Assembly (NCBI RefSeq): GCF_000026545.1
Contig: NC_011601.1
Strand: one strand, 5' to 3'
From: Escherichia coli O127:H6 str. E2348/69
Lineage (GTDB): Bacteria > Pseudomonadota > Gammaproteobacteria > Enterobacterales > Enterobacteriaceae
Length of the DNA stretch: 64,000 nt
Within the stretch, counting starts at the first letter, position 1; the number at the start of each line of letters is the position of its first letter. The position numbers were made by a program, and so were the translations under genes. Under the pieces are notes generated by a model. The model searched no databases and was not told the DNA's origin. It worked only from the letters and a program-made list of their open reading frames with translations. Positions 40,675 through 42,543 of the stretch are shown piece after piece.

Positions 40675-41019
40675 TTAAAAAGGATTGTAGTTTGAAAAGG
40701 GTTCGGCAATTGCCACACCAAAATTTTTCAATCGGCATGTTGCAGCAAATTCGTCCTGGCGATTTACAAACAGGCACGGCTCACCTTCACACTCCAGCAC
40801 CGAACATGGAACTTCGATGTCGCTTAACGCCTGGCTTAGTTTGTACATCACCGACCATGCATTATCACCATCCGGGCTAAGCAATTTAAGCGCCACCAGG
40901 CTGTTGTCACCGCACGGTCCATTTTGCGGAATCGGTTCAACCTTCGAACCTGCGAAACCAGCAGACCAGCGATAGTTCTGCGGCAGTCGATGGACGATTG
41001 AGAGTTGTAATGAAGTCAC
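40675..41019 (-). CDS. yejG: Uncharacterized protein YejG
   Basis: 114-aa [50 protein letters not shown]...; matches YejG. Confidence 0.85.
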
Positions 41020-41352
41020 TTATTTTCCCCGGAAGTACATTTTACTTCACAATTTGTTTACATCAATTTTAACACATCATCAACAATCCGTCTTTATACA
41101 GATCGTAAAGATTGATGCCTCGCCTGCGTGGCCTCTATGGCTCTGATTTAAATAATATCTGCGGGCGTGGTCACGTTTGCGGGGCTATATGTACCCGTTT
41201 CTGCGATCTAACTCAACCTTTTTAACTACAATAATGTGACTTTTTACATAAATTGATTTTACATAAAATAAACATATATCGGGGGAATGATAGATTTGTG
41301 GTTGACATGCATCAACAAAGGAAGCCTTTTAGCTTCCTCGTTGTGCAATAGA

Positions 41353-42543
41353 TCACCGTTTTTTCGGCCGACTGGCGTACAAACAGAAGAGAATGGAGCT
41401 GGTTGCGCAGAATGCAATTGACCAAATCATCGGCCATGCAGAGTTAAAGGTCGCAAGAGAAAGTAATGCGCCAACAATTGCCCCTATGCCGAAACGGAAG
41501 GTTCCTGCCAGCGAAGATGCCGTTCCCGCCATATGGGGAAACTCATCAAGAATGACCGCCATCGCATTGGATGACACCATCGACACGCAGCCCACAAACG
41601 CCGCAACGCCAACCACCAGCGACCAGAATCCCAGCCCCAGCAGTGCACTGATGACCATCCACGCTGCCATAATAAACTGTATCCACAACCCCGAGCGGAA
41701 CATATTTAACGCGCCAATACGGCGGACGAAGCGGCTGTTAAAGATGGTCATCACGAACAGAAAAAGAATGTTTAGCGCAAAGTAATAACCAAAGTTTTCC
41801 GGCGCGACGTGGTTGATTTCAATGTAGACAAACGGTCCGGCGCTTAAGAATGAGAACATCCCGGCAAAGCTGAAACCGCTGGCCAGCATATAACTCAGGA
41901 CACGCTTATGACGGAACAGCGCCGCAAAGTTACCAATAGTGGTACGAATGTGAAAAGGCTGGCGACGCTCCGGCGGTAAGGTTTCTTTGATCAGAAAGAA
42001 GATCATTGCCGAAGCCAGAATCGCCGCCACGGCGAGGATCCAGAAGATGTAATGCCAGCTCAGCCACACCAGCACCCAGCCGCCAACTATCGGTGCCATC
42101 AGCGGTGCAATGGTCGTCACCAGCATGACAAACGACATCATCCGTGAGAACTCTTCTTTCGGGTAGATATCACGCATCAAAGCGTTGATAACCACGCTGG
42201 CCGCAGCCGCAGCCAGCCCGTGGAAGAAACGCATCACAATCAGCTGATCGATGGTTTGTGCCAACGCACACGCCACCGCGGCGGCGGCAAACACCAGCGT
42301 ACCGCCAAGAACCACCGGCTTACGCCCGAAGCTGTCTGCCATCGGCCCGTAGATTAACTGCCCCAACGCAAAGCCCAGAATATAAGTACTGAGGGTCATC
42401 TGCGTACTGCCCGCCGGTACACCAAACTGCGCTGAAATTACCGGTAGCGCAGGCAGATACATATCAATCGACAGCGGCATCAACATGGCCAGCAGGCCAA
42501 GGATAAAAACAATAGCAAACGACGAATGCTGTCGGGTGGTCAC
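41353..42543 (-). CDS. bcr: Bicyclomycin/multidrug efflux MFS transporter Bcr
   Basis: 396-aa 12-TM MFS ORF matching Bcr. Confidence 0.92.

Follow-up and report, generated by a model that had tools for sequence, protein, structure and literature searches.

The two copies of the 11-mer TTTTACATAAA in the bcr–yejG spacer probably serve as recognition elements for phosphorylated ArcA (ArcA-P), an oxygen-responsive repressor that senses redox state, that is, as direct-repeat (DR) half-sites with a TGTAAA core in the upstream regulatory region of the yejG promoter P2. We put the probability of this reading at roughly 70%. The distal copy is DR2 of the canonical, catalogued ArcA box yejG2. In substance, the feature is already known from the supplementary tables of a 2013 paper (PMC3798270). 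Three points are new. The visible tandem repeat consists of DR2 and an unannotated, equally strong, off-phase DR-like element; this two-core arrangement is conserved in about 70 species; and a natural single-copy allele occurs.

The 11-mer is present in two exact copies, at 41242-41252 and 41257-41267, which were found alike by reading the sequence, by a pattern search and by a repeat finder. Their start-to-start period is 15 bp, and on the gene strand, shared by yejG and bcr, the arrangement reads TTTATGTAAAA-tcaa-TTTATGTAAAA. No third copy of TTTTACATAAA exists elsewhere in the window (the whole 64-kb stretch of DNA that was analysed), even with one mismatch allowed. The spacer measures 333 bp from the bcr stop codon (41353-41355, minus strand) to the GTG start codon of yejG (41019, minus strand), and the 72-bp AT-rich core around the repeat has a G+C content of 22%. 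Both coordinate pairs reproduce exactly what the sequence-only reading had given for two 11-bp copies 15 bp apart, and the place it had named, an AT-rich spacer upstream of yejG and downstream of bcr, was borne out as well. The regulated gene, yejG, occupies 40675..41019 on the minus strand; to our knowledge, its product is a small conserved protein whose function is not known. The bcr gene (41353-42543, minus strand) ends in a terminator hairpin at 41308..41347 on the same strand (fold -23.8 kcal/mol, z = -5.1). The promoter/terminator scan missed this terminator, and folding revealed the hairpin clearly. The order on the gene strand is thus bcr stop codon, terminator hairpin, repeat and yejG. 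Because the terminator precedes the repeat, the latter lies outside the bcr mRNA.

Two sigma70-dependent starts of yejG have been determined by primer extension in K-12, at 2,276,299 (P1) and 2,276,419 (P2) in U00096.2 coordinates (PMC3798280). The offset of 1978 from U00096.2 to NC_000913.3 was fixed by matching published site strings, and conversion to the window places P1 at 41060 and P2 at 41180. An independent TSS-seq data set (PMC3415461) confirms P1-proximal starts at 2276298 and 2276287, and contains no start upstream of these. P2 is supported by a single primer-extension result, with P1-proximal starts only in the TSS-seq set, and its position is good to about 1-2 nt. The P2 core promoter spans 41180..41216 on the minus strand. 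Judged from the sequence, its hexamers are probably TTGAGT-17-TACATA, with the -35 element TTGAGT at 41216-41211, the -10 element TACATA at 41193-41188 and the start at 41180; the 17-bp spacer between them contains a GATC. In alignments, this core promoter block is nearly invariant across genera. An RpoH SELEX peak has been reported near P2. Promoters of the sigma32, sigmaE, sigma28 and sigma54 types were rejected for P2 by eye, as their hexamers or spacing do not fit.

The repeat occupies -62 to -87 of P2, a distance that does not change from genus to genus, whereas relative to the start codon of yejG it is found at positions between -139 and -258. Because the distance to P2 is fixed while that to yejG and P1 varies, the element is tied to P2 and not to P1. 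A loop that joins the P1 operator to the upstream site in fixed phase is disfavoured, since their separation varies by up to ~120 bp among genera.

The position of the repeat also bears on a role in RNA or as a promoter. The units had been proposed as duplicated -10-like elements. This finds no support, as the nearest mapped starts lie 62 and 182 bp downstream of the repeat and the promoter scan gave no promoter with 16-18-bp spacing that uses it. Neither primer extension nor TSS-seq has mapped a start site or 5' end within or upstream of the repeat. The hexamers TAAAAT and TTTACA do occur in it and could belong to an unmapped promoter, but on the plus strand TTTACA and TAAAAT are separated by a spacer of 15 bp, and the promoter scan accepted no candidate. 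Alternatively, transcription from a TTGATG-17-TATCAT promoter (41315-41287) could produce a long yejG leader in which each of the two units forms an AUG-UAA start-stop mini-ORF. This promoter is predicted upstream and has been proposed from SELEX, and from its start the repeat would lie at roughly +13 to +38. Each unit does contain ATG-TAA, and where GTG or TTG commonly replaces the ATG, a start codon is preserved. However, a Shine-Dalgarno sequence is absent ahead of either ATG, the Klebsiella and Intestinirhabdus variants (CGTTTAAAA and ATTTAAAA) break the start-stop while retaining the block, and the surroundings of the TATCAT -10 element are not conserved across genera. An RNA or promoter role in either form is very improbable. 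An Rfam scan of the spacer returned only noise (CRISPR-DR41 with 18.3 bits against a threshold of 36, E = 1.6; ST7-AS2 with 21.7 bits against a threshold of 80), and these sub-threshold scores rule out a curated RNA element or a CRISPR repeat.

The operators of the OmpR/PhoB family (PhoB box, PhoP box, CpxR box, and OmpR F and C boxes) are, as we assume, head-to-tail direct repeats bound by a winged-helix dimer. The TGTTTA-N5-TGTAAA found here presumably resembles the PhoP box TGTTTA-N5-TGTTTA at 10 of 12 positions, and GTAAA is what we take to be the CpxR pentamer (CpxR box GTAAA-N5-GTAAA). The PhoB, PhoP, CpxR and OmpR boxes presumably all use a period of 10-11 bp, so that 15 bp fits none of them. 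PhoP, CpxR, OmpR, RstA and KdpE were rejected by eye: their half-sites are similar, but the 15-bp period does not suit them, and supporting data were not found. The literature yielded no report that connects yejG with binding by PhoP, CpxR or OmpR. The TGTTTA-N5-TGTAAA pattern suggested an ArcA box, which the literature then confirmed.

Two ArcA ChIP-seq regions, yejG1 and yejG2, have been found upstream of yejG in K-12 (Park et al., 2013, PLoS Genet 9:e1003839, PMC3798270). The yejG2 region has its peak at 2276488 with an enrichment of 1.9, was called in one of two replicates and holds an ArcA box of 17.6 bits (PMC3798270). Its published 31-bp site, ATGTTTATTTTATGTAAAATCAATTTATGTA (PMC3798270, Table S4), matches the window exactly at 41245..41275 on the minus strand, the string being identical in the window and K-12. 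The deconvolved ChIP-seq peak converts to window position 41249, inside the proximal copy. DR1, ATGTTTATTT, lies at 41266..41275 on the minus strand and has 8.0 bits in Tables S1 and S4 of Park et al. The distal repeat copy, TTTATGTAAAA at 41257..41267 on the minus strand (-77 to -87 of P2), holds DR2, ATGTAAAATC at 41264-41255, which was scored at 8.5 bits (PMC3798270, Table S4). DR1 and DR2 lie 11 bp apart, centre to centre, on one strand, as in the sequence definition of an ArcA box. The proximal copy, at 41242..41252 on the minus strand (-62 to -72 of P2), contains the ArcA DR-like ATGTAAAAAG at 41249-41240 and carries no DR annotation in Park et al., whose DR3 at yejG2 is a 1.4-bit element located 10 bp further on (PMC3798270). 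On the sequence, DR1 and the distal copy thus form the ArcA box, and membership of the proximal copy is not demonstrable. As for the proposal of a site for an AT-hook-type or nucleoid protein, the binding site stands, since the repeat falls in an ArcA ChIP-seq region, while the kind of protein does not, since ArcA is a response regulator.

The stronger site, yejG1, comprises four DRs at 41043..41086 on the minus strand, from -26 to +18 of P1, and overlaps the extended -10 element of P1, TGTTAAAAT (41074-41066), as well as the P1 start near 41060. It showed enrichments of 8.2 and 8.5 in both replicates and contains an 18.8-bit ArcA box (PMC3798270). The yejG gene is listed among 85 directly ArcA-repressed operons, its expression is 11.9-fold up in ΔarcA, and its sigma70 occupancy falls anaerobically (PMC3798270, Table S6). 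A companion FNR study reports a sigma70 ChIP signal at yejG of 1462 under aerobic versus 56 under anaerobic conditions, and yejG of Salmonella is likewise ArcA-dependent. It is among the more strongly ArcA-repressed genes, and the 11.9-fold effect of ΔarcA cannot be apportioned between yejG1 and yejG2. The occupancy and expression data come from K-12 or Salmonella, and the 31-bp site is the same in the window.

The strength of the individual elements was assessed with a 10-bp ArcA PWM built from 132 DRs of the two-DR class in Table S4 of Park et al. DR1 scored 7.3 bits, the distal and proximal copies 9.1 bits each, and a further ArcA DR-like element, TAGTTAAAAA at 41219..41228 on the minus strand, 21 bp from the proximal copy, reached 10.8 bits. 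On the same scale, the four DRs of yejG1 at P1 gave 8.1, 10.1, 9.6 and 8.1 bits. Scores of at least 9 bits occur at just 34 of 127,982 window positions, and the summed score of DR1 and DR2 is reached at only 4 of 127,960. Within the 72-bp AT-rich core, the gene strand carries four matches of at least 7 bits, compared with 0.6 in composition-matched shuffles (P = 7.5e-4), and three of at least 9 bits, compared with 0.16 (P = 2e-4). ArcA DR motifs are AT-rich and degenerate, and an AT-rich conserved block may score well for other reasons.

The scores were also followed across 17 genera. The distal copy retains 7.2-11.0 bits in all 17, and the TGTTT core of DR1 is invariant in the genus-level alignment. 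The proximal copy scores at least 6 bits in 15 of the 17 genera and is lost in Franconibacter and Siccibacter. TAGTTAAAAA has at least 6 bits in 13 of the 17, with a nearly invariant AAAAAGG; it is also an A-tract adjoining the -35 element, like a proximal UP element.

Conservation was examined within E. coli and across species. The spacer occurs once each between bcr and yejG in 5,425 of 5,426 complete E. coli genomes, and the exact 32-bp two-copy string is present in 5,339 of them. Copy-number alleles were counted with junction-only and repeat-only BLAST queries, which returned one single-copy and no triple-copy allele among the 5,426 genomes. In the single-copy genome, strain EC24.26 (NZ_CM186189.1), 15 bp have been cleanly deleted, and one copy remains. 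In this allele, DR1 and a hybrid DR2 are still 11 bp apart, and the latter is now fused to the GTCACA half-site.

The cross-species set comprised one genome per species, fetched via YejG, and gave 80 enterobacterial loci, including those of Escherichia, Salmonella, Citrobacter, Kluyvera, Klebsiella, Kosakonia, Enterobacter, Leclercia, Mangrovibacter and others. Two TGTAAA cores are found in 70 of the 80 species and are spaced by 15 bp in every one. TGTTT-N6-TGTAAA is present in 77, and both exact 11-mers in 29. The alignments contain a conserved, almost indel-free block of ~95 bp, TGTTTnTTTTATGTAAAATCnATTTATGTAAAAAGTCACATCATTGTAGTTAAAAAGGTTGAGTTAGATCGCAGAAACGGGTACATATAGC, which stops at the -10 element of yejG P2; the spacer sequence on either side of it is essentially unalignable across genera. 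The first bases of the proximal unit (TTTA) drift among species, where TTTG, TTAA, TTAG and TTCG are seen, and the selected core would therefore be (A/G)TGTAAAA. Exactness over 11 bp in E. coli is probably in part incidental, selection appearing to act on the (A/G)TGTAAAA core at a fixed 15-bp offset. A conservation check had been proposed for the repeat, with absence from close relatives as a point against it. Such absence was not found: more than 15 genera retain the repeat. Conservation at this phylogenetic depth supports yejG2, a weak ChIP call from a single replicate, which is thus probably a real operator.

The same data bear on the reading of the repeat as a chance or slippage-made tandem duplication without function. 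The number of 11-mer matches in the window is not significant (2 against 1.33 expected with up to one mismatch). An exact repeat of at least 11 bp recurring within 11-30 bp appeared in 0.2% of the shuffles when the whole spacer was randomized and in 0.1% when only its 72-bp AT-rich core was. In block shuffles of the whole window (100-bp blocks), 0.3 such close repeats were found on average and at least one in 24% of the shuffles, compared with 3 in the real window. By itself, such proximity of the two copies exceeds chance by only a modest margin. The repeat is judged non-random because of its conservation, which is decisive, and not because of repeat statistics. Slippage finds some support in the 15-bp deletion of one strain, but a copy has been lost in only 1 of 5,426 E. 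coli genomes. Cores and spacing are kept in 70 of 80 species and in more than 15 genera with unalignable flanks, which effectively refutes the chance reading. An origin by accident alone, with no function, is hardly credible.

It is unlikely that the repeat is generic AT-rich DNA to which Fis, H-NS or IHF binds as a nucleoid-associated protein, or that it works through DNA shape. The low G+C content of the core agrees with such a role. A Fis ChIP-seq enrichment overlaps a predicted FNR site ~40-60 bp upstream (2276541, corresponding to window position ~41302), and TACATAAATT presumably resembles the H-NS nucleation motif, which we take to be TCGATAAATT. However, a table of RpoD SELEX results flags H-NS at many spacers and not at yejG-bcr. 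Moreover, sites of nucleoid proteins tolerate drift, whereas 70 of 80 species preserve TGTAAA at a spacing of exactly 15 bp amid AT-rich positions that vary. A sequence-specific factor is favoured because the conservation is base-specific and spacing-exact. At the 4-bp linker, conservation does not extend to the IHF core ATCAA, for which ATCCA, ATCTA and ATATA are found in other species, and a 15-bp period, equal to 1.5 turns, cannot phase A-tracts for curvature. Several other motifs were rejected by eye: an IHF site, in which ATCAA is not conserved and TTR is missing; a TyrR box, whose right arm is without the required C; and Fur, NsrR and DnaA boxes, which match poorly.

Within the ArcA reading, the proximal copy differs from DR2 in its helical position. 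In all 70 species possessing two cores, it lies 15 bp from DR2, where the canonical offset is 11 bp. Additional DRs are expected in helical phase, at ~11 or 22 bp, and the proximal copy falls outside these distances. Its sole in-phase relation is that of 21 bp to TAGTTAAAAA. At putP, a third DR at a 12-bp offset lost ArcA protection (PMC3798270). Since a 12-bp offset was already sufficient for this loss, cooperative binding of ArcA to the proximal copy is doubtful, and because the copy is out of phase, it is not filed as a demonstrated ArcA DR.

In an alternative view, P2 has a class I CRP site, and the proximal copy acts chiefly as the left half of it. The resemblance of this copy to the distal one would then arise from the overlap of the ArcA DR and CRP half-site consensus sequences (TGTAA versus TGTGA); P2 would be activated by CRP-cAMP, and ArcA, bound to the neighbouring box, would oppose this activation. 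The candidate is the 16-mer TATGT-AAAAAG-TCACA at 41235..41250, which on the gene strand matches TGTGA-N6-TCACA at 8/10 positions and is centred at 41242.5. Its TCACA half agrees fully with the consensus, and from the frequency of such CRP matches over the whole window, 0.12 would be expected per 333 bp. In E. coli, by contrast, the left half matches at 3/5 positions and is without the first critical G; in 10 species it reads TGTGT, which raises the CRP match to 9/10. The GTCAC half is almost invariant across genera. The TGT of the proximal copy is less well conserved than AAAAAGTCAC, which persists in Franconibacter and Siccibacter, where TGT is lost, but GTCACA also scores as an inverted ArcA DR (ATGTGACTTT, 6.2 bits). 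The centre of the CRP-like site lies at -62.5 of P2, given a start that is good to about 1-2 nt. Canonical class I CRP sites are centred near -61.5, within one base of this position, or whole helical turns further upstream. A CRP genomic-SELEX peak falls within the bcr-yejG spacer. However, SELEX-chip has low resolution, and its authors placed two other boxes in the spacer and not TATGT-AAAAAG-TCACA. No report of crp-dependent yejG expression was found in the literature, and one study assigned yejG to repression by Cra. We regard a mainly CRP-directed role of the proximal copy as possible but doubtful. Such a role is compatible with the ArcA model if the copy is a dual-use element, and the proximal copy may work as an ArcA DR, as a CRP half-site, or as both.

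The ArcA reading suggests the following mechanism. When respiration is limited, ArcA-P would nucleate on DR1-DR2, at about -80 to -95 of P2. From there, it would spread over the equally strong proximal copy and over TAGTTAAAAA next to the -35 element. The resulting occupancy of roughly 57 bp would resemble the long ArcA footprints that have been described. ArcA would in this way occlude the upstream activating region of P2, with its alpha-CTD/UP-like contacts and possibly the class I CRP site of which the proximal copy forms part. Both promoters would be silenced at once, P1 through direct occlusion by yejG1, the main operator with four DRs.

More tentatively, the proximal copy may be a separately selected element, positioned 1.5 turns from the ArcA box in more than 15 genera and acting either as a hinge between CRP and ArcA or as part of an opposite-face ArcA architecture. 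As a hinge, it could mediate ArcA/CRP antagonism at P2, and an ancient 15-bp duplication could have un-nested the ArcA DR from the CRP half-site. The single-copy allele of EC24.26 re-nests the two. In an opposite-face architecture, DR1-DR2 could occupy one face of the helix, and the proximal copy together with TAGTTAAAAA, 21 bp apart, the other. This architecture could fall outside the 11/22-bp rules of the 2013 study.

The conspicuous repeat is thereby explained as part of the oxygen/redox control of yejG, which is of little import beyond annotation. A full-strength ArcA-type element at a 15-bp offset in ~70 species could help to refine the tiling rules of ArcA dimers. Alternatively, the 15-bp offset could reveal how ArcA and CRP inputs combine at one promoter.

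Among known systems, the placement of the 16-mer may correspond to that in class I CRP promoters of the lac type, whereas the match is 8/10 here and CRP binding is predicted. The closest counterpart of the repeat is the yejG2 site of Park et al., with which sequence, locus and the 11-bp spacing of DR1 and DR2 are the same. The use of TGTAAA in place of a TGTTAA core is common among the DRs accepted in that study, such as those of fadI, fadH, yigG and rsd. As in Park et al., yejG2 is located upstream of an ArcA-repressed operon that has another strong ArcA site overlapping a promoter. The architectures described there use offsets of 10, 11, 12 or 22 bp, whereas the proximal copy at yejG stands at 15 bp.

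The tandem 11-mer of the bcr–yejG spacer, with its proximal copy at 41242-41252 and its distal copy at 41257-41267, is one of three exact 11-mer direct repeats in the whole window whose copies lie no more than 30 bp apart. The other two are both GC-rich and both probably intragenic: TCCGGCACGCT at 51743-51769, with copies 16 bp apart, and TCGCCACGGCG at 60209-60249, with copies 30 bp apart. Among 5,426 complete E. coli genomes, a clean 15-bp deletion of one repeat unit was found in that of EC24.26 alone (NZ_CM186189.1, as assembled), where it aligns to window positions 41242-41256. In this allele, the ArcA direct-repeat element DR1 (41266-41275) and a hybrid DR2, the element otherwise lying within the distal copy, are still 11 bp apart and are fused to the GTCACA half-site of the CRP-like 16-mer (41235-41250). 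The assembled EC24.26 allele is thus the natural counterpart of the one-copy deletion experiment suggested by the sequence-only reading.

Directly past the bcr terminator lies an FNR-type palindrome, TTGATGCATGTCAA, at 41302-41315, which occurs in the perfect TTGAT-N4-ATCAA form in many other genera, as seen in the cross-genus alignment. It corresponds to a predicted FNR site with the high score of 14.14, which was without binding in FNR ChIP-seq and is overlapped by Fis ChIP-seq enrichment (Myers et al. 2013). Folding places the left half of the palindrome in the extended stem of the bcr terminator, and this role may be the real constraint on it.

Just downstream of the P1 start site of yejG (41060), at 41038-41052, two substitutions and an insertion of 1 bp set the window, which reads GAAGTAAAATGTAC, apart from K-12, which has GAAGTGAATGTGC. 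These changes alter the last base of the fourth direct-repeat element of yejG1, the strong ArcA site over P1, and give rise to the hexamer TAAAAT, for which TTGATG is the partner in the promoter scan. Regulator sites have been reported or predicted in the literature within yejG itself (40675-41019): a Cra ChIP-exo site lies in the coding region, and a GalR operator is predicted about 80-95 bp into the gene, at NC_000913.3 2278144-2278159. One transcriptome study assigned repression of yejG to Cra.

The second start site, P2 (41180), has a core promoter (41180-41216, minus strand) that is almost invariant over its entire length in alignments across more than 15 genera, including its 17-bp spacer, TAGATCGCAGAAACGGG, which holds a GATC Dam site. 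An RpoH genomic-SELEX peak has been reported at 2276452 (U00096.2), equivalent to about window position 41213. The near-invariance of the core, spacer included, suggests from sequence comparison that either a further factor binds there or another holoenzyme acts; such invariance is unusual in a sigma70 spacer.
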